A stretch of 17,203 bases of DNA from Candidatus Micrarchaeota archaeon (GTDB lineage: Archaea; Micrarchaeota; Micrarchaeia; Anstonellales; Bilamarchaeaceae). This document shows, in pieces, positions 9,757-16,781 of this stretch. The stretch is from assembly GCA_040754495.1 (NCBI GenBank), contig JBFMCO010000068.1, positions 1 through 17,203 on the forward strand, in the 5' to 3' direction. A program made the translations under genes and the position numbers. Under the pieces are notes generated by a model. That model had not been told where the DNA came from, did no database searches, and was given only the letters and a program-made list of their open reading frames with translations. Within the stretch, counting starts at the first letter, position 1. Each line of letters starts with the position of its first letter.

Positions 9757-10671
9757 TTAGCTGTCATAATCGCAGCTGGAACTATAGTAATTCGGGCTTT
9801 TCGAACCTTCATTAACCATCTCTCGAAGTTTCGCGCAGGCAGCGTCCAGATTCCCGTATATCCCCGAAATCACGCCCTTTATCGCATCCCCCTGCGGTTC
9901 GAGGGAGAAGAAGACCGCCTTTTTTGCGAAGGTGTACGGCACCTCAACCGAGCCGGACCCAGTTGCTACGGTCTCGGTGGCTTGCGTCTGATAATAGAGA
10001 ACGAGATAGGTCTCCGTATCGATGCATTTGATTTCCTCATCGCTGTCCCAGCTGAGGCGGTAGGATACGTTCAGGCAGTCGCGGCCGAGCACCCTTGACA
10101 TCCCCAGTATGACGCCTTGCGCCTCCTCAAAAGAGACGGTTTCGGCCCACTGCCCGGATGTTCCGTTGTATTCGTACGAGGAGGATATCGTGCTCCACAT
10201 GAAATGCGGACCGCCCTCCGGGCATCCGCTCGGGTTGCGGCAGAAGAGGCATGCCCAGGAAACCGGCTGCGGACCGCAAAGGACGTTAGAGCCGTTTTTC
10301 GGGTTCCAGACGATGTTGCATTCCGGATTGAAATAGTCTTTCGAGTCATTTTCAGAGTAGTTTTTGAAGCAAAGCCTCGAGAGGTAGTCCTGGCCGCTTG
10401 ATACGACATCTACGAAGGCCCCCTCCCCGCTGCCCGGCCGGCCGCTCTCGTCATATGCGTAGATTATCCGGTATTCGGAGGAGAGCATCGCGTCCCTGCT
10501 CTTCTGGAGGATTTCCTTAAGCGTTGAGTTTTCAAGTCCCCCGCTCTGGTTTTGCGGAGGATAAGCGGAGGGGGGCGGGGTCTGGTTCGAACCCGTACGC
10601 GTCGATGCCTCTTGGGTGCATCCTGCCAGCAAGAGCATGCCAATCAGGAAAAGAGCCTGCAAAAGCCTCAT
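9757..10671 (-). CDS. Secreted Cys-rich lipoprotein of unknown function
   Basis: Signal peptide with lipobox LLLAGC, a Pro/Gln/Ser linker, then a Cys-rich body. TTTTAAT TATA-like element 22-28 bp upstream. Confidence 0.75.
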   Translation of the reverse strand: MRLLQALFLIGMLLLAGCTQEASTRTGSNQTPPPSAYPPQNQSGGLENSTLKEILQKSRDAMLSSEYRIIYAYDESGRPGSGEGAFVDVVSSGQDYLSRLCFKNYSENDSKDYFNPECNIVWNPKNGSNVLCGPQPVSWACLFCRNPSGCPEGGPHFMWSTISSSYEYNGTSGQWAETVSFEEAQGVILGMSRVLGRDCLNVSYRLSWDSDEEIKCIDTETYLVLYYQTQATETVATGSGSVEVPYTFAKKAVFFSLEPQGDAIKGVISGIYGNLDAACAKLREMVNEGSKSPNYYSSSCDYDS

Positions 10672-10746
10672 GGACAGATTATTCAGGCAAGATTAAAATG
10701 GATTGACGCACCCGCGAGCGGAGCGAGCGAAATTCCACGTTTTTGG

Positions 10747-10767
10747 GCGCTTTTTACAAAAAAGCGC
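10747..10767. other. Perfect 9-bp inverted repeat at the island's left boundary
   Basis: GCGCTTTTT-ACA-AAAAAGCGC, directly abutting repeat copy 1. Confidence 0.6.
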
Positions 10768-10865
10768 AGGGCCATGACCGAGAATTCAAATCCCAGTTCG
10801 AGTCTCGTAAAATTCATGCAATATCATGCATTTTTCAGCAAGACATTGCAGTATCGAAATATAAA
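10768..10865 (+). repeat. ~98-bp imperfect direct repeat, copy 1 (palindrome pair + TATA)
   Basis: Aligns to 12698-12794 with 78/98 identities by hand. Identical blocks: AGGGCCATGACCG, GAATTCAAAT, TCTCGT, ATGCAATATCATGCAT, ATTGCA and AAATATAAA. Confidence 0.92.
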
Positions 10866-10886
10866 GCCGTTTGTTGCTCATTATGT

Positions 10887-11597
10887 ATGATGGCGTCAAG
10901 AATAAAGCTTCACAAATCTGAGGGGCTCACTGGAAGACACGACTTGGTGAGATACCTAGCTGGAGCGATACTTGAGATTAATGCGGATCATCCGGTTCGG
11001 GTAGGTATTGATGGTGCTGACGCATCTGGAAAGACGCATCTGGCTAATGACCTTGCAGTAGAACTCGGAAAAAGAGGGCGGCAGATAATTCGTGCCTCGA
11101 TAGACGGTTTTCACAATCCAAGGGGGATCAGGTACAGAAAAGGCCGGGATTCTCCTGAAGGGTATTATCTCGACTCTTTCGATAATCAAGCCATCATCGA
11201 CAATCTGTTAGCTCCTCTTGGCCCTAACGGAAATCGGTTGATAAGGACTGTGATATTTGATTTTAGAACAGATTCGGAAGTCGATGCGGTGGCGATACGT
11301 GCGACAAATAACTCAATCCTGGTAATGGAAGGGGTTTTCTTGTTTCGTCCCGAACTGGCCAGTCAATGGGATTTGAAGGTATTTTTGGACGTGGATTTTT
11401 CTACCTCTCTGAGCCGTGCTTTGAAACGAGATATATATTATCTTGGCTCAGAGGAGGGTATCAGACAGATGTACGAAAAGCGCTATATCCCCGGGCAGAA
11501 ATTATATTTCGCAGCATGCAATCCTAAAGAACAGGCGGACATCCTAGTAGACAATAACGATTTCGATAATCCAAAGATTACTCGATGCTCTGTGTGA
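10887..11597 (+). CDS. Uridine-kinase-like P-loop nucleoside kinase
   Basis: VGIDGADASGKT Walker A, RASIDGFHNP, SPEGYYLDSFD, EGVFLFRPEL and RYIPGQ. ATG 10887/10890 lies ~25 bp after the TATA of repeat copy 1; the 10743 extension runs through the repeat. Confidence 0.85.
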   Translation: MMASRIKLHKSEGLTGRHDLVRYLAGAILEINADHPVRVGIDGADASGKTHLANDLAVELGKRGRQIIRASIDGFHNPRGIRYRKGRDSPEGYYLDSFDNQAIIDNLLAPLGPNGNRLIRTVIFDFRTDSEVDAVAIRATNNSILVMEGVFLFRPELASQWDLKVFLDVDFSTSLSRALKRDIYYLGSEEGIRQMYEKRYIPGQKLYFAACNPKEQADILVDNNDFDNPKITRCSV

Positions 11598-11623
11598 CTA
11601 CACTTTGATTTCCCGTAGTCACA
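11593..11623. repeat. Inverted pair TGTGACTAC-N13-GTAGTCACA at the convergent kinase/Fic junction
   Basis: TGTGACTAC at 11593-11601 and GTAGTCACA at 11615-11623. Each arm contains the TGA stop of one of the two genes. Confidence 0.85.
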
Positions 11624-12563
11624 TCTTTTTCTTCAGGCTCTTCCGCAGGCGCCGATACTCTTTCAGCATGAGCTCGATCATCGGCCTTATATTCTGGCTA
11701 TTCTCATATTTCTGCAGCGCGGCATAATACTCTTTCCGGTTTTTCAATTCGATGTTAAGGGGCGGGAAATTATGCTTAAGCAAGATGTTTATCAGCAGAA
11801 GGCGCCCTACCCGCCCATTGCCGTCCTCGAAAGGATGGATATTCTCGAATTGGTTGTGCACCACTGCAGCTAGAACGAGCGGCGGGTATTTTTTCCGGTT
11901 CTTGCCGTACCAGATGACCAGTTCTTTTAAAAGAGAGGCGACTTGGCTTGATGGCGCCCCCTGATGTATTATATTTCCGAAACCATCAACAACCGCCACT
12001 TCCTTGCCGCGCGCTCTGAAGTTCCCTGCAAACGGTTTTGAGTTCTTGAATATGATTCGATGGAGTTCCTTTATCAGCCCTAGGGAGACATGATCTTTAG
12101 CCTTTCTAATGTAAGCAACCGCCTCGGCAACCCCATAGGTCTCGGATATCTCTTCCTTTGGTTTTTCCGGCCATTTGTTCTTCTCAAGGATATTGAGTAC
12201 CTCATGTCCAGTGACTGACGAACCTTCGATGGCATTGGTATCATAGGTGAATGCTTCGGTGAACTTCCGCCAGTCAGCTTCACTTAGATGGAGCAATTTT
12301 ATCTTGCCTTTGGCTTCGATGGTTCTGAGTTCTCCAAGTTCAGATGGAGATAAAACAGTCCTATAGGGGTCATGGATAAATTTTGCGCTCTGAAGCCTAG
12401 AACTGATCATCTGCTCGGCTTCCTTTTTCTTTGAATCCACCTGCGCTTGGGAGAGATCGGCACCCAGGTATACCCGGATTTTTTTGATTTTTCCGTCCTT
12501 CCGATAGGAATGGGCCAGATAGTACTGTGTTCTGCCGTCTTTCCTCCTTTTTTCGATGTACAC
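11619..12563 (-). CDS. Fic-domain protein (class II) with an N-terminal beta-sheet putative DNA-binding domain
   Basis: Intact catalytic motif HPFEDGNGRVGR and inhibitory (S/T)xxxE(G/N) motif TNAIEG. N-terminus MYIEKRRKDGRTQYYLAHSYRKDGKIKKIRVYLG. GTG start. Confidence 0.93.
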   Translation of the reverse strand: MYIEKRRKDGRTQYYLAHSYRKDGKIKKIRVYLGADLSQAQVDSKKKEAEQMISSRLQSAKFIHDPYRTVLSPSELGELRTIEAKGKIKLLHLSEADWRKFTEAFTYDTNAIEGSSVTGHEVLNILEKNKWPEKPKEEISETYGVAEAVAYIRKAKDHVSLGLIKELHRIIFKNSKPFAGNFRARGKEVAVVDGFGNIIHQGAPSSQVASLLKELVIWYGKNRKKYPPLVLAAVVHNQFENIHPFEDGNGRVGRLLLINILLKHNFPPLNIELKNRKEYYAALQKYENSQNIRPMIELMLKEYRRLRKSLKKKM

Positions 12564-12575
12564 AAATAGGTATTA

Positions 12576-12618
12576 TGTGACTACGTTTATTAATTTATTG
12601 ATTAGGTTGTGACTACGT
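12576..12618. promoter_or_regulatory. Fic promoter: TATA flanked by direct repeats TGTGACTACGT
   Basis: TGTGACTACGT at 12576-12586 and 12608-12618. Minus-strand TTAATAAA lies between them, 24-31 bp upstream of the GTG. Confidence 0.75.
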
Positions 12619-12697
12619 AATTTGGTTAGCCGTCGAAATCGGAATTGGTGAATAAAAGAAGGAAAGGGCCACGACCGGGACCACCCAGGAAGATTAT

Positions 12698-12794
12698 AGG
12701 GCCATGACCGTGAATTCAAATTCTGGTTCGACTCTCGTTAAACAATGCAATATCATGCATGTGTATGCAATATATTGCATAAGTTAAATATAAA
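12698..12794 (+). repeat. ~98-bp imperfect direct repeat, copy 2
   Basis: Lies 1930 bp after copy 1 and contains the perfect 18-bp palindrome TATGCAATATATTGCATA (12764-12781). A partial third copy AGGGCCACGACCG is at 12665-12677. Confidence 0.92.
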
Positions 12795-12827
12795 TCTTTT
12801 TTCAGTGTCGCACATGGTTAACAACAA

Positions 12828-14348
12828 TTATTCGTTGTTGTGCTCATACCCAAGCCTTCCCCATCTTTTCTTGAGCTTATCAAGGACCTCGGGGTTTCTG
12901 ATTAGACCGTCGTAAATTTCCTTGAATTCCTGGAGTGTTTTTGCAGACTCCAATGCGATAAGCACGGCGCATGCCTTGAATATATGGTAAACTACACCGG
13001 CAAGCTTACCTTGAGACCTTGCAAAGCGATATGCAGGACTAGAAGAGTTAATTGCCAATGCCTTGCGTTTCTTATCATAGGTTGCCTCAGGTTCAAGAAT
13101 TCCAAGTTCGCTTATCTCTATTTTCAGATCGCCCGCTGATAAAAGCTTAAATAGGCCGGGTGTTGAGACTTCCGTACTTTCTTTTTTCCGTGTTTGCTCT
13201 TCGTGCCTCGGGCTTGGCAGATTATTTTCTTTAATTGGCCTTTGCTCGGTCCTTATCGACAAAGATGTCTTCGTTGCAGCAACGGCCAGCGCCTCCGATA
13301 TGGCAGATGGTATGACCTTCTTTTCCACGGTATCTCTTGCTTTCTCGTATTTTTCGTATTCCAGATCGGAAAGTCTATTCAATTCTTTCTTGAGCCAGTT
13401 CATAAAAGAGATATACTTTGGGTGTGTCACGATAAATCCAGCCCGGTTTGTTTGGAGAGCATCATTAAGCCCATTGACGTTTATGTCGGCGTATATCTTT
13501 CGGTTAAACTGTCGTGCATGGTTCAAATTGGCAAAGTTGACAATGGTATGAGGACTGTCCAAATTAACCAACCTTTCAAATACCCTGATGAAAACCCCGA
13601 ACTCCCCTCCCTTTTCGCTATGCTTGAAGATGACCGTGCCATTTATGTCCCCTAAATCCGGAATGTTACCTCGTATCAGGTGCACATTGCCATGGATGAC
13701 GTCCTTAGAGGCAAGTGTAATTGGATGTCCTAGGCCCATGCCGCTTAGGATGATTTGAAAGTCCTTTGTTAGGGGCATTGTTTGCATCAAATGCCGCTTT
13801 ATTTTGATCGCATCGATTTTTTCCTTAAGATTCCGAAGCGTGATCTTTGTACCGCTTCCTTTGCGCTCTGTAAGTTCCGTAATCACGGAGAGCTCGAACG
13901 TATCTATGAATTCTTCTCTTTCGAATTCTTCAAAATCAAACGAGGCCCTAGAGAGTTTTCCGGCTCGCCATGTTTCTATGTCGAAAGATTTGCATATCTG
14001 GTATAACGAGAGTTTTCCAATACCGAACTTGCCAATTATGTACCTCTTAACTCCCTTGAACGATCTCACTGGAACATCGACTTTGCCAGTGTGCGAGATA
14101 TAAAAGAACTTTACCAAGCCATCGCGATCCATCCCCTCTCCATCATCCTCGATTGTGATCTGGATGTCCTGGACATCGAGCTTAACTGTTGTCGCAAGCG
14201 CGTCGCGTGAGTTTGCCACTAGTTCGTCAAAGATGATAAGGGGGTTTGGGTAGAATGTGGTGCTCAGCTGTTTTATGATTCTAGTTCCGACCCTGACTTT
14301 GTTGCCAGAAGAGGCAGGAATCACACTAATCGATTCGTCCGCTTGCAT
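12828..14348 (-). CDS. GHKL (HSP90/MutL/prokaryotic MORC-like) ATPase
   Basis: Bergerat motifs FDELVANSRDA, IEDDGEGM, IGKFGIGKLS and GTKITL. An S5-like middle region (GVFIRVFERLV), a helical linker and a C-terminal INSSSPAY region follow. Confidence 0.88.
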   Translation of the reverse strand: MQADESISVIPASSGNKVRVGTRIIKQLSTTFYPNPLIIFDELVANSRDALATTVKLDVQDIQITIEDDGEGMDRDGLVKFFYISHTGKVDVPVRSFKGVKRYIIGKFGIGKLSLYQICKSFDIETWRAGKLSRASFDFEEFEREEFIDTFELSVITELTERKGSGTKITLRNLKEKIDAIKIKRHLMQTMPLTKDFQIILSGMGLGHPITLASKDVIHGNVHLIRGNIPDLGDINGTVIFKHSEKGGEFGVFIRVFERLVNLDSPHTIVNFANLNHARQFNRKIYADINVNGLNDALQTNRAGFIVTHPKYISFMNWLKKELNRLSDLEYEKYEKARDTVEKKVIPSAISEALAVAATKTSLSIRTEQRPIKENNLPSPRHEEQTRKKESTEVSTPGLFKLLSAGDLKIEISELGILEPEATYDKKRKALAINSSSPAYRFARSQGKLAGVVYHIFKACAVLIALESAKTLQEFKEIYDGLIRNPEVLDKLKKRWGRLGYEHNNE

Positions 14349-14638
14349 TTCCCATCAGCCCGCGGGGGGCGGGTAAGTTTAAAAACCTAAAAATGGATAG
14401 TATATCATCGACGAAGTCGGATGTTACCTGGCAGAGCCGGTCGGCCCTGTCGGGCCATCATCTATTTTTTGTACATAATGCGTACAAAGTACGCGGCTCT
14501 GCGTGCCGAGCACACAGGCTACATCGACTTGTTCATCGATATACTGTCCTATTTAGCCTGTAACTAAAACAATTTAAAAAGCTTCCCGCGGGCTGGCCCC
14601 GTATCAGTTCCCACGGTAAGCCCATGCAAAAGTAATAT

Positions 14639-15709
14639 TTAAACTTTTCGGTTCAGCAGTTCCAAAAGCCACTGCCCAACCCCCTTCGCTACGAAGGGAG
14701 GGACGGCGTTCCCAACCTGTGTATACTGAGGACAACTGACCACCCTTTGCTTCCCGCCAGTTGTTCTCGGCCCTAAGAATACGTAGGAGTCGCTAAAGGA
14801 TTGCAACCGCGCCATTTCGCGGACAGTCAATATCCGAGGCAGTGAATAGTGCACATAATCATCGGGCAACGTCGTGACTGTTGGCGCGGGTTCGGATTCG
14901 GCCAGGCGGTAGAGATAACGCTTCTTTGTATCCCCTCCGTTAGGCAGGTTTCTTAGACTCCAGCCCGGGGCAAGACTGGAAAATCTTTTGGCGACCCTTT
15001 TTGAATGCATTGCAGTCGTATGGTTCGATAGCGATTTCATAAGCCCCCTCATGGTTGTCTGATACACTGATCGAGGCGGCAACGCATATTTCGATGAGGA
15101 TTCTCCTGATCTCAGGAATGACAAATCTCCGATAGCTTCAGCCACCGACACCCTTCGCATTTGTTCTTGTTTGAAACTATTGATATCGACGTCACGAAGT
15201 TTTGATCCAAGGATAAAGACCCTCTCCCTTCTCTGTGGGACGCCAAAGTCAGTTGCATTAATCACCCGCCAGGAAACTTTGTAGCCCGCACCTTCCAAAC
15301 TTTCAGTTATGGCACGCAGGAACCACCCCTTTTTCATAGTAAGGATTCCGCGGACATTTTCAATGAGGACAAAAGTGGGACGAACTTTTCTTGCAAGCCG
15401 GACAACCTCCTTGAAAAGATAGTTGCGGCGGTCTTTTTGTTTTCTTTGACCTGCATGAGAGAATCCCTGGCAGGGAAGCCCAGCAAAGAGAAGATGAACC
15501 TTCCCCCCAGCTGCGTCCAGTATTTCCTCAGCTGCGAGTTTGCGGACGTCCTTTTCAATCAGGATAGTCTCGGGGTGGTTTGCCTTGTAAGTCAAGGCAG
15601 CGTGGGGGTTGATTTCATTTGCAACTTTAACGACAAATCCAGCCTGTTTCAGGCCGTCACTTGCCCCCCCGGCACCCGCAAAAATGTCAACTGCAACTAA
15701 CTCTTCCAT
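14639..15709 (-). CDS. DNA (cytosine-5)-methyltransferase
   Basis: Motif I DIFAGAGG, IV GLPCQGFS, VI ENVRG, VIII QRRERVFI, IX RILTVREMARLQSF and X QVGNAVPP. Confidence 0.97.
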   Translation of the reverse strand: MEELVAVDIFAGAGGASDGLKQAGFVVKVANEINPHAALTYKANHPETILIEKDVRKLAAEEILDAAGGKVHLLFAGLPCQGFSHAGQRKQKDRRNYLFKEVVRLARKVRPTFVLIENVRGILTMKKGWFLRAITESLEGAGYKVSWRVINATDFGVPQRRERVFILGSKLRDVDINSFKQEQMRRVSVAEAIGDLSFLRSGESSSKYALPPRSVYQTTMRGLMKSLSNHTTAMHSKRVAKRFSSLAPGWSLRNLPNGGDTKKRYLYRLAESEPAPTVTTLPDDYVHYSLPRILTVREMARLQSFSDSYVFLGPRTTGGKQRVVSCPQYTQVGNAVPPFVAKGVGQWLLELLNRKV

Positions 15710-15712
15710 GTG

Positions 15713-15859
15713 CTACGCCCTTCTGTATTTTAACATCTTACCAAGCTGCCGTACGATCTCTTTCAAGGCTTCGCCCTTGCTAGTAATCGAATTGTCAGCC
15801 ATAAAGCGCTTGACGATCCACGTCTCATGCTTGTCAAGGTCTATCAGGGTCTTGGTCAT
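15713..15859 (-). CDS. 48-aa ribbon-helix-helix (DUF2683/VapB-like) putative regulator, not in the ORF track
   Basis: Hand translation MTKTLIDLDKHETWIVKRFMADNSITSKGEALKEIVRQLGKMLKYRRA*. Alternating beta strand followed by two helices with SKxEAL. Its stop lies 3 nt before the MTase ATG. Confidence 0.7.
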   Translation of the reverse strand: MTKTLIDLDKHETWIVKRFMADNSITSKGEALKEIVRQLGKMLKYRRA

Positions 15860-15868
15860 TTTATCGCC

Positions 15869-15908
15869 ATATTACATACTATAACATAATATTACAAAAG
15901 ATAATATT
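15869..15908. promoter_or_regulatory. Putative operator/promoter of the RHH-MTase operon
   Basis: ATATTACA direct repeats at 15869-15876 and 15889-15896 (20-bp period) flank a TATA-like TTATAG on the minus strand. ATAATATT also occurs twice. Confidence 0.55.
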
Positions 15909-16321
15909 TAATTATATGCATTCAACGCACGTTTAATCTTTTTTATACATCGAGTCAAGTTCTTTGTAACCTCGTGTTCCCAGAGGCGAAGTATCGTCCA
16001 GCCCTTCTTCCTAAGAAGCGCCCTCTGCCTTTTATCTCGGCGCATGTTTTGTTCAATCTTCCTCCGCCAGAATGAATTCAGTTTGGCCTTCCTTTTTGCA
16101 TAATCCCAGCCGTGCCAAAAGTCGCCGTCTACGAAGACAAGTATTTTCCTTCCATCTGATGAAACCAAAAAGTCGGGATTGCCCATGCCTCGGGGGTGTT
16201 TCCGGTAGGGGATTTTGGATTTACGTAAAGCCTTGGCAAGCAGAAGCTCGATCTTCGTATTCTTTCCTCGTATTCTGGACATGACCCAGCTTCTTTTTTC
16301 TTTACTGAAGACATCAGCCAT
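15908..16321 (-). CDS. vsr: Very short patch repair endonuclease
   Basis: MADVFSKEKRSWVMSRIRGKNTKIE, PDF, FVDGDFWHG, FWRRKIEQNMRRD and GWTILRLWEHEV. ATG 16321 follows GGGGTG; the ORF track starts at TTG 16336. Confidence 0.95.
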   Translation of the reverse strand: MADVFSKEKRSWVMSRIRGKNTKIELLLAKALRKSKIPYRKHPRGMGNPDFLVSSDGRKILVFVDGDFWHGWDYAKRKAKLNSFWRRKIEQNMRRDKRQRALLRKKGWTILRLWEHEVTKNLTRCIKKIKRALNAYN

Positions 16322-16475
16322 TACAGCACCCCGCAATTATGCCATATTTGAAATACACGCGGCAAACTTCTTTTAAGAAACGTATTAGTTGTTGACTTTT
16401 TCGTGCAATATGTTGTATAAATGAATAAATCGTCTTGAGCTAATTGTATACACCATCTCAAAATGGGGTGGTGAA

Positions 16476-16781
16476 TTGAATCTCAAGAGTATAACTATGC
16501 TCCTCCTTGTCGGAGGAATGGCTTTTGCCGAGTTCAGCATACCATCGGACCAGCCGATCTGCAACCTGTACGGCCTGCTTAAGACATTCGGTACGGTCGT
16601 AGGTATCATCGTAGCGGCCTACTCGGGCTTCATGCTGGCAAGCGTTACGGACCTTAAGGAGAGGAACGATGCCAAGGCCCTCCTGGGAGGCGTGGCTGTA
16701 GGTCTAATCGTAATCTGGATCGCTCCTTTGGTCATAACGAACCTGGTAGGAGCTGAGAGCGTCTGCGGGTGGACCTCCTGA
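16476..16781 (+). CDS. VirB2/TrbC-like pilin with signal peptide
   Basis: Signal peptide ending AFA, then two TM helices separated by a charged loop (SVTDLKERNDAKALL). Cys near both ends of the mature chain. SD GGGGTGGTGA. Confidence 0.7.
   Translation: MNLKSITMLLLVGGMAFAEFSIPSDQPICNLYGLLKTFGTVVGIIVAAYSGFMLASVTDLKERNDAKALLGGVAVGLIVIWIAPLVITNLVGAESVCGWTS

Follow-up and report, generated by a model that had tools for sequence, protein, structure and literature searches.

A class II Fic gene of a micrarchaeon framed by four copies of a putative operator for its own N-terminal domain

The stretch analysed here, called the window throughout, is an entire 17.2-kb contig (17,203 nucleotides) from an archaeal assembly of 1.63 Mb in 72 contigs, assigned to Candidatus Micrarchaeota; the assembly is about 80% complete, and repeats often stay unassembled. 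The window carries a gene for a Fic enzyme of 314 amino acids (11619-12563, minus strand, GTG start, TGA stop), framed at both ends by copies of a short motif. Exact TGTGACTAC occurs at 11593(+), 11615(-), 12576(+) and 12608(+), with no fifth exact match within the window, as a preliminary description of this DNA had reported. Allowing one mismatch gives six matches in the window against 1.43 expected, a number reached in none of 200 shuffles. The 1.63-Mb genome as a whole holds five exact copies, four of them at the Fic locus. Exact site pairs 15-40 bp apart are confined in this genome to the Fic locus, with no sign of a wider regulon of such pairs. Shuffles and genome-wide counts together rule out a chance origin of the sites.

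Read in the sense of the gene, the 5' end presents ACGTAGTCACA, 21 nt of A/T-rich, TATA-like sequence, ACGTAGTCACA again, 12 nt and the GTG start. The distal promoter site, U1 (12608-12618, minus strand, sense ACGTAGTCACA), contains the exact motif and lies upstream of a TATA-like box (sense acctaatcaataaattaataa) within the A/T-rich spacer (12587-12607, minus strand). The proximal site, U2 (12575-12586, minus strand, sense ACGTAGTCACAT), also with the exact motif, falls between this box and the start codon and ends 12 nt before the GTG. At the 3' end the order is ATG-TGA, with the stop codon within TGTGACTAC, then 13 nt, then GTAGTCACA. Here the inner site, D1 (11614-11624, minus strand, sense ATGTGACTACG), has the exact motif in the opposite orientation and holds the last codon and the TGA of the Fic gene (11619-11621, inside the motif at 11615-11623). 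A spacer (11602-11613; 13 nt between the 9-mers) separates it from the outermost site, D2 (11593-11601, minus strand, sense GTAGTCACA, exact motif), which in turn holds the TGA (11595-11597) of a convergent PRK/uridine-kinase-like gene (10887-11597). An upstream pair around a TATA-like stretch (12576/12608) and a downstream pair containing both convergent stop codons (11593/11615) had been described before, and both arrangements are confirmed. The inner two sites had in addition been singled out as a perfect 11-bp inverted pair enclosing the gene. That repeat is exact (CGTAGTCACAT at 11614-11624, ATGTGACTACG at 12575-12585), but what relatives conserve is a direct pair at the promoter together with an inverted pair at the 3' end.

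By sequence criteria the encoded protein is a class II Fic/Fido AMP-transferase with a FICD-like core, and AMPylation is its predicted activity. It matches the Pfam Fic family (PF02661) with an E value of 2.5e-19 (70 bits against a cut-off of 24), and the family profile matches human FICD over residues 105-302 (1.2e-33). The catalytic motif HPFEDGNGRVGR (11802-11837, minus strand, residues 243-254) fits HxFx(D/E)GNGRxxR, and the inhibitory-helix motif TNAIEG (12222-12239, minus strand, residues 109-114), N-terminal to the core, fits (S/T)xxxE(G/N). Both can be read intact in the translation, in agreement with the preliminary description, and both are invariant in alignments of 92 orthologues, including glutamate E113 of the second. 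A full-length AlphaFold2 (AF2) model built with these orthologues (predicted local distance difference test, pLDDT, 88.6) shows an N-terminal domain, a linker of lower confidence and then the Fic core.

The protein family is highly conserved, with thousands of relatives, the best of them 63-87% identical and many labelled Micrarchaeota. We assembled full-length orthologous loci, 23 from genomes and 80 from metagenomes, 94 of which had enough flanking sequence for geometry; their sources include Bathyarchaeia, Aenigmatarchaeota, Methanosarcinales, Woese-, Pace- and Nanoarchaeota, Nitrosopumilales and Hadarchaeota. Nearly all of these approximately 100 loci (43-100% amino-acid identity) display the four-site plan: two GTAGTCAC(C/A) sites around the TATA box, and an inverted pair with a 13-nt spacer on the stop codon. 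Homologues thus carry GTAGTCAC sites at both ends of the gene, the pattern that had been proposed as a check on the preliminary description. The consensus word is tGTAGTCACCt. Start-to-start spacing of U1 and U2 is 30-33 nt in 76 of 77 loci, about three helical turns, and U2 ends 10-14 nt before the start codon in the 77 loci scored. At the other end D1 and D2 lie 20-22 nt apart (70 of 73 loci), about two turns, and D1 covers the TGA stop in the same register in 52 of 73. The spacer between them is 13 nt in 45 of the 51 loci with exact 8-mers, its length kept and its sequence free. Three layouts exist among the orthologues, the window's being the commonest. Some lineages have the inverted pair directly upstream, with its second half serving as the distal promoter site, and in others the distal site is flipped, so that the inverted pair itself encloses the TATA box. 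One further locus (L231, G546:C27:4084-4124) has an exact A-type double site with no Fic-like open reading frame (ORF) behind it, and may be a remnant or a chance match; it does not enter the counts given here.

The position of the upstream sites is informative. Between them the orthologues have a TTTAWATA-like octamer that starts 27-32 nt before the start codon, with a mode at -30. Archaeal promoter spacing is such that, with a TATA octamer at about -30, transcription would begin on the start codon or directly beside it, and the mRNA would therefore be leaderless or nearly so. With a leaderless start, U2 would fill the DNA between TATA box and start, the classic place for an archaeal repressor, and the distal site U1 lies just past the region of the B recognition element and TATA box. 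The putative cognate sites of the Fic protein thus overlap its own core promoter, at fixed distances to both TATA box and start. Taken together with the evidence set out below, this arrangement leads us to regard it as probable, though by no means assured, that the Fic gene and its four sites form one self-contained, self-regulated unit, in which the Fic protein, bound to these sites, represses its own promoter.

That the sites may be read by the product of the gene is indicated most directly, among the present data, by covariation between protein and DNA. Base 9 of the site is C in most loci of the Fic family and A in a minority that includes the window. Residue 13 of the protein, located just before an invariant Tyr-Tyr of the second strand of the N-terminal domain, is Lys without exception in the 73 C-type loci (and in 83 of 83 when sites are called less strictly) and Leu, Gln or Tyr in all 12 A-type loci. 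A pattern search within the window's phylum added two A-type loci, one with Leu and one with His, bringing the total to 14 of 14 with Leu, Gln, Tyr or His; the window itself combines Gln13 with A. On the protein tree the state of base 9 has switched at least five to six times, and every switch involves all sites of a locus. Residue 17 shows a partial association with bases 3 and 5, and residue 2 with base 3, the minority variants (9 to 13 loci) being too scarce for a judgement.

These data also bear on the idea that the sites are operators for another, host-encoded transcription factor, the Fic N-terminal domain serving elsewhere in binding substrate, RNA or tRNA. Binding of the Fic protein to the sites is a prediction, the domain is also found fused to three aminoacyl-tRNA synthetases, in which an RNA-binding appendage would be ordinary, and its weak fold matches include PC4/Sub1 and Pur-alpha. 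We nonetheless think a host factor very improbable. The unit occurs in many phyla without a conserved neighbour, and such a factor would need to be universal; the word is private to the Fic gene in each genome checked; base 9 follows a residue of the Fic protein itself; and every subfamily of the domain comes with its own word.

The putative site reader is the N-terminal domain, residues 1-62 (12378-12563, minus strand). Modelled alone by AF2 (pLDDT 90), it consists of antiparallel strands at residues 2-8, 11-22 and 25-35 followed by a long helix at 39-62, and assignment to a class of three strands plus helix is likely on the strength of this model. Its relatives are harder to name. Arm-type domains of P4-like and HPI integrases lead the Foldseek results (3rmp_C first, 3jtz second, 3ju0 sixth), the weak matches also including the single-stranded nucleic-acid binders PC4/Sub1 and Pur-alpha, and a search of viral structures in BFVD returned integrase-length proteins, an integrase and an AP2 protein, all as weak matches. 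The domain has no match above cut-off in Pfam or NCBIfam, the ESM Atlas gave no usable name, and the domain profile retrieved only noise from PDB sequences. Kinship with integrase arm-binding domains is weak, below family cut-offs, and not established. There is also a connection with transposases. The domain profile (A4) matches, with an E value of 3e-9, the head of an ORF (L219) in a DPANN genome that encodes an IS1634-family transposase (NF033559, 210 bits). This match spans the first approximately 40 residues of the transposase and is significant for one of the four transposase heads compared; two others (L218 and L222) resemble the domain by eye. It links the N-terminal domain, through sequence similarity, to a class of heads that bind DNA ends. 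The preliminary description had likened the N-terminus to three-stranded sheets of both IS1634-type transposases and integrase arm-binding domains. The predicted sheet, with its helix, and the transposase match support this remark; the structural matches to integrase arms are weak. In the Fic protein itself no DDE transposase catalytic domain was found, the only domain after the head being Fic.

The head is not confined to the window's family. Searched against 1.8 billion representative proteins, the domain profile gave only 226 matches, including Fic proteins and fusions to class II tRNA-synthetase cores and phosphoenolpyruvate (PEP)-utilising enzymes. One DPANN phylum has the domain in 63 of 151 genomes, in up to five genes each, where it heads several Fic subfamilies, an MntA-type antitoxin followed by a HepT toxin gene, prolyl-tRNA synthetase (ProRS), the alpha chain of phenylalanyl-tRNA synthetase (PheRS-alpha) and a protein resembling glycyl-tRNA synthetase (GlyRS). 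The synthetase and MntA fusions lie in DPANN genomes at L166:1495-3162, L171:1480-3159, L173:1-1671 and L194:1501-2324. Three proteins of 534-578 amino acids (P0215, P0242 and P0254) combine the same head with a C-terminal PEP-utilising mobile domain, and the remainder of a fourth headed protein of 502 amino acids (P0165) has no Pfam or NCBIfam family match.

Genes with the head tend to have repeats at their promoters. In 37 domain-headed genes a direct or inverted repeat within 100 nt upstream encloses the TATA box, its proximal copy about 10-13 nt before the start, and the longest exact upstream repeat averages 7.6 nt, compared with 3.3 nt for 68 control ORFs from the same loci (Mann-Whitney p = 3e-7). 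The words are specific to subfamilies (TGTAGTCACC, TGTAGACACC, TGTAGACGTA, TGTAGACATAT, TGTAATGGTA, GTAGGGGTAA, TGTGGTAATTAAC and ATGTGCAC). The ProRS and MntA genes both have TGTAGACGTA around the TATA box, and PheRS-alpha has three to four copies of TGTGGTAATTAAC there; no repeat was detected at the GlyRS-like gene (L173). A private word at the gene's own promoter, the antitoxin gene included, has the look of a self-regulating DNA-binding head. In its widest form, which we put forward tentatively and hold to be somewhat short of probable, this reading would describe a portable 'self-operator' head, shared with IS1634-type transposases and grafted, in DPANN archaea among others, onto six or more kinds of enzyme (several Fic subfamilies, MntA, ProRS, PheRS-alpha, GlyRS-like and PEP-utilising proteins), each fusion becoming a private regulator through its own word at the TATA box. 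In this Fic family, an operator at the stop codon would additionally loop the gene or form a roadblock, giving a self-insulated cassette.

The sharing of a head with transposases gives some substance to a second suggestion of the preliminary description, that the four motifs delimit a non-autonomous mobile cassette. The cassette would derive from an insertion sequence (IS) in which Fic has replaced the catalytic part of the transposase, and would be moved in trans by a transposase with a matching head. Such a cassette would account for the profile match, for the perfect U2/D1 inverted pair that tightly encloses the ORF, and for an end of homology with relatives at the outer sites. Between diverged loci, nucleotide homology spans only from about -52 to +31 to +46 of the ORF, a span bounded by the first and the last site, and with the closest relative (same genus, 86% amino-acid identity) it begins at 11592, the outer edge of D2, the kinase gene being absent there. 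Moreover, the gene is patchy in its own genus (3 of approximately 40 genomes), it lies in a stretch with a guanine-plus-cytosine (GC) content of 46% in a genome of 59.5%, and several orthologues adjoin tRNA genes.

Other observations argue against such movement. The unit is single-copy in its own genome and in three others checked, where the inverted pair occurs exactly once, at the Fic gene, and a repeat family or IS is rejected on these grounds. The sequences outside U1 and D2 show no target-site duplication, their longest shared word averaging 4.30 nt against 4.24 nt for shuffled pairings (57 loci). Neither an IS1634 transposase nor a second protein with the domain was found in the assembly of the window's own genome, about 80% complete, in which Fic is the only protein bearing it. 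No recombinase or partner gene is linked in 102 loci, and no neighbouring gene family recurs in more than eight of them, those eight representing one lineage. The U2-D1 pair does not enclose the TATA box, and the distances from the sites to this box and to the start codon are fixed. In other lineages the inverted pair can be found around the TATA box or upstream of it. Nor do the DPANN IS1634 copies that were examined have terminal repeats related to the motif. We therefore give little credence to a mobile cassette. The limits of homology would fit a unit held together by selection, requiring no cut-and-paste mechanism. Because it is patchy in the genus and its GC content is far below that of the genome, the Fic gene was probably transferred as part of larger islands.

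Two features of the surroundings of the unit in other genomes may be recorded here. Sequences resembling the 3' ends of tRNA genes were recognised by eye directly upstream of the Fic unit at L003, L157, L160, L019 and L207, and such flanks would fit islands integrated at tRNA genes. In the L089-L119 group, a single lineage, an indel of about 120 bp lies about 15 nt past the last site (about +45) and variable insertions begin at about -210; in this group the surroundings of the unit are a rearrangement hot spot.

The 3' pair calls for separate consideration. It could act as RNA, in the form of a 9-bp hairpin that terminates or stabilises the Fic and convergent transcripts, with only the promoter pair being a protein site. 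D1 and D2 would indeed form a perfect 9-bp stem in 55 of 67 loci, and on the plus strand of the window TCTTTTTCTT follows the hairpin, producing a terminator-like shape for the PRK-like gene. In the Fic sense, however, a run of five T within 15 nt after D2 is found in none of 51 loci, and departures from the locus word in D1/D2 are one-sided in 12 cases and two-sided in five. The fixed 13-nt loop of free sequence fits the helical phasing of two protein sites better, and the identity of the stem with the promoter word is left unexplained by a role in RNA. The same inverted pair is placed around the TATA box, or upstream of it, in other lineages and is hence not transcribed there, and the closest relative has no convergent gene at this position. 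A hairpin or terminator as the main role of the 3' pair is unlikely on this comparative evidence.

We are able to propose a mechanism for autoregulation by the Fic protein. Its chain would begin with a small DNA-binding domain, joined by a flexible linker to the inhibitory helix and, after it, the catalytic core; the N-terminal domain would recognise the asymmetric word tGTAGTCAC(A/C). Two direct copies of this word, three helical turns apart, would present the protein on either side of the TATA box. Since the proximal copy covers the stretch from TATA box to start, bound protein would block the pre-initiation complex or RNA polymerase, and the resulting repression would amount to negative autoregulation. 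The inverted pair at the stop codon, two turns apart, would form a second operator for the same protein, most likely providing cooperativity by looping to the promoter sites or a roadblock that insulates the unit from neighbouring transcription; it may also gate the enzyme. The preliminary description had offered an AMPylase able to bind DNA at either end of the gene that encodes it; the sites at both ends in homologues and the covariation of residue 13 with base 9 speak for this proposal.

Several considerations weigh against autorepression through these sites. The covariation is perfect and involves four replacement residues, yet it is not yet statistically decisive: independent contrasts number three on supported branches and five on all branches, and while all are concordant, a sign test on so few cannot reach 0.05. 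Similarity of the head to known DNA-binding domains is weak in structural terms. Foldseek probabilities of 0.96 (3rmp_C), 0.82 (3jtz) and 0.75 (3ju0) come with E values of 0.1-0.6; VIA-align places 3jtz (Z 5.3) and an AP2 domain (Z 5.2) within the noise band; and only one of 98 members matches Pfam Arm-DNA-bind_5, with E values of 0.02-0.04 and scores of 15-16 bits where the cut-off is 22.6. In the window itself the TATA-like box agrees poorly with the consensus (5 of 8 positions, by eye). Repression rather than activation is a direction suggested by the position of the sites. Finally, ordinary autorepression needs no sites 1 kb away, and any role assigned to the 3' pair is a guess; this pair is essentially confined to the window's Fic family, most other domain-headed genes being without 3' sites.

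The wider surroundings of the gene are low in GC. GC content drops from about 60% to about 45% across 10500-16500 of the window, a stretch that holds, besides the PRK-like and Fic genes, genes for a GHKL-type ATPase (12828-14348, with an HATPase_c_3 match), a Dcm-type C5 methylase (14639-15709) and a Vsr endonuclease (15908-16336). The stretch has the look of an acquired island of the defence type. Direct repeats of about 105 bp (10768-10872 and 12698-12801; two blocks, 87% and 75% identical) enclose the PRK-like kinase and Fic pair, the second copy lying about 80 nt upstream of the distal Fic site, and no further copy occurs elsewhere in the genome. Palindromic ATGCAATAT...ATTGCAT boxes lie within this repeated element, at 12738-12787 and 10811-10850. 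A 29-nt hairpin-like segment at 10740-10768 (tttttgggcgctttttacaaaaaagcgca) has partial copies on three other contigs of this genome (C14, C28 and C56) and may be a short repeated terminator-like element.

Enzymes that double as regulators are familiar from bacteria, in which BirA and PutA are bifunctional, and an archaeal example is available in RbkR (PMC5397151). The Fic protein would resemble all three as an enzyme with its own, here predicted, DNA-binding domain that regulates transcription. Unlike them, it would use neither a helix-turn-helix nor a ribbon-helix-helix domain, and in place of pathway genes its only genomic target would be its own gene. A close parallel is CccR of Yersinia pseudotuberculosis (PMC9755527), a Fic protein that binds its own promoter through a DNA-binding domain and thereby represses the gene encoding it. 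Both proteins join a Fic AMPylase domain and a DNA-binding domain, predicted in the present case, in one polypeptide. CccR comes from a bacterium and is a type VI secretion substrate; the protein of the window has, at its N-terminus, a predicted domain of three strands plus helix, and its gene has an archaeal TATA promoter and an additional pair of sites at the stop codon. Self-repression through arm-type sites has been described for the integrase IntS of KplE1 (PMC2951348). With the arm domains of IntS and P4 Int the Fic protein would share a small N-terminal beta-sheet domain and short asymmetric words in direct and inverted copies, and 3rmp, 3jtz and 3ju0 are its best structural matches. 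It differs from integrases in having no recombinase domain, and the unit has no core-type site; the likeness is weak.

IS1634-family transposases bind, through their heads, terminal repeats at both ends of their own gene, and by profile the Fic protein shares this head. It differs in having no DDE domain, its unit is single-copy with no target duplications, and the terminal repeats of the IS copies examined are not GTAGTCAC-like. A further comparison is with toxin-antitoxin modules. Phd-Doc comprises a DNA-binding head, an inhibitory element and a Fic/Doc-type core, and the domain order of the window's protein resembles this pair fused into one chain. In HepT-MntA the connection is through the head itself, which we found on an MntA antitoxin followed by a HepT toxin gene. 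In contrast to both modules, the Fic gene stands alone, without a separate antitoxin. Full-text literature searching returned no description of the N-terminal domain or of this architecture. What appears to be new here is a predicted DNA-binding head without an entry in Pfam or NCBIfam, the range of unrelated enzymes that carry it, and a putative operator at a stop codon.

To our knowledge, DPANN archaea have very few recognisable transcription factors, and their regulation is largely unknown. The locus described here suggests that a tiny, unannotated head may give single genes direct feedback control, among them potentially toxic Fic enzymes, an antitoxin and essential tRNA synthetases. It offers a simple candidate code between protein and DNA, in which Lys13 goes with C and Gln, Leu, His or Tyr13 with A, and a possible example of archaeal regulation from both ends of a gene. 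It may also link the heads of transposases to domesticated regulators. For Fic biology, it presents a FICD-like enzyme from an archaeon, with a dosage, and perhaps an activity, that may depend on DNA binding. If the proposal is true, the portable head would create a cassette with its own promoter control and 3' boundary, functional after transfer into any archaeal genome.

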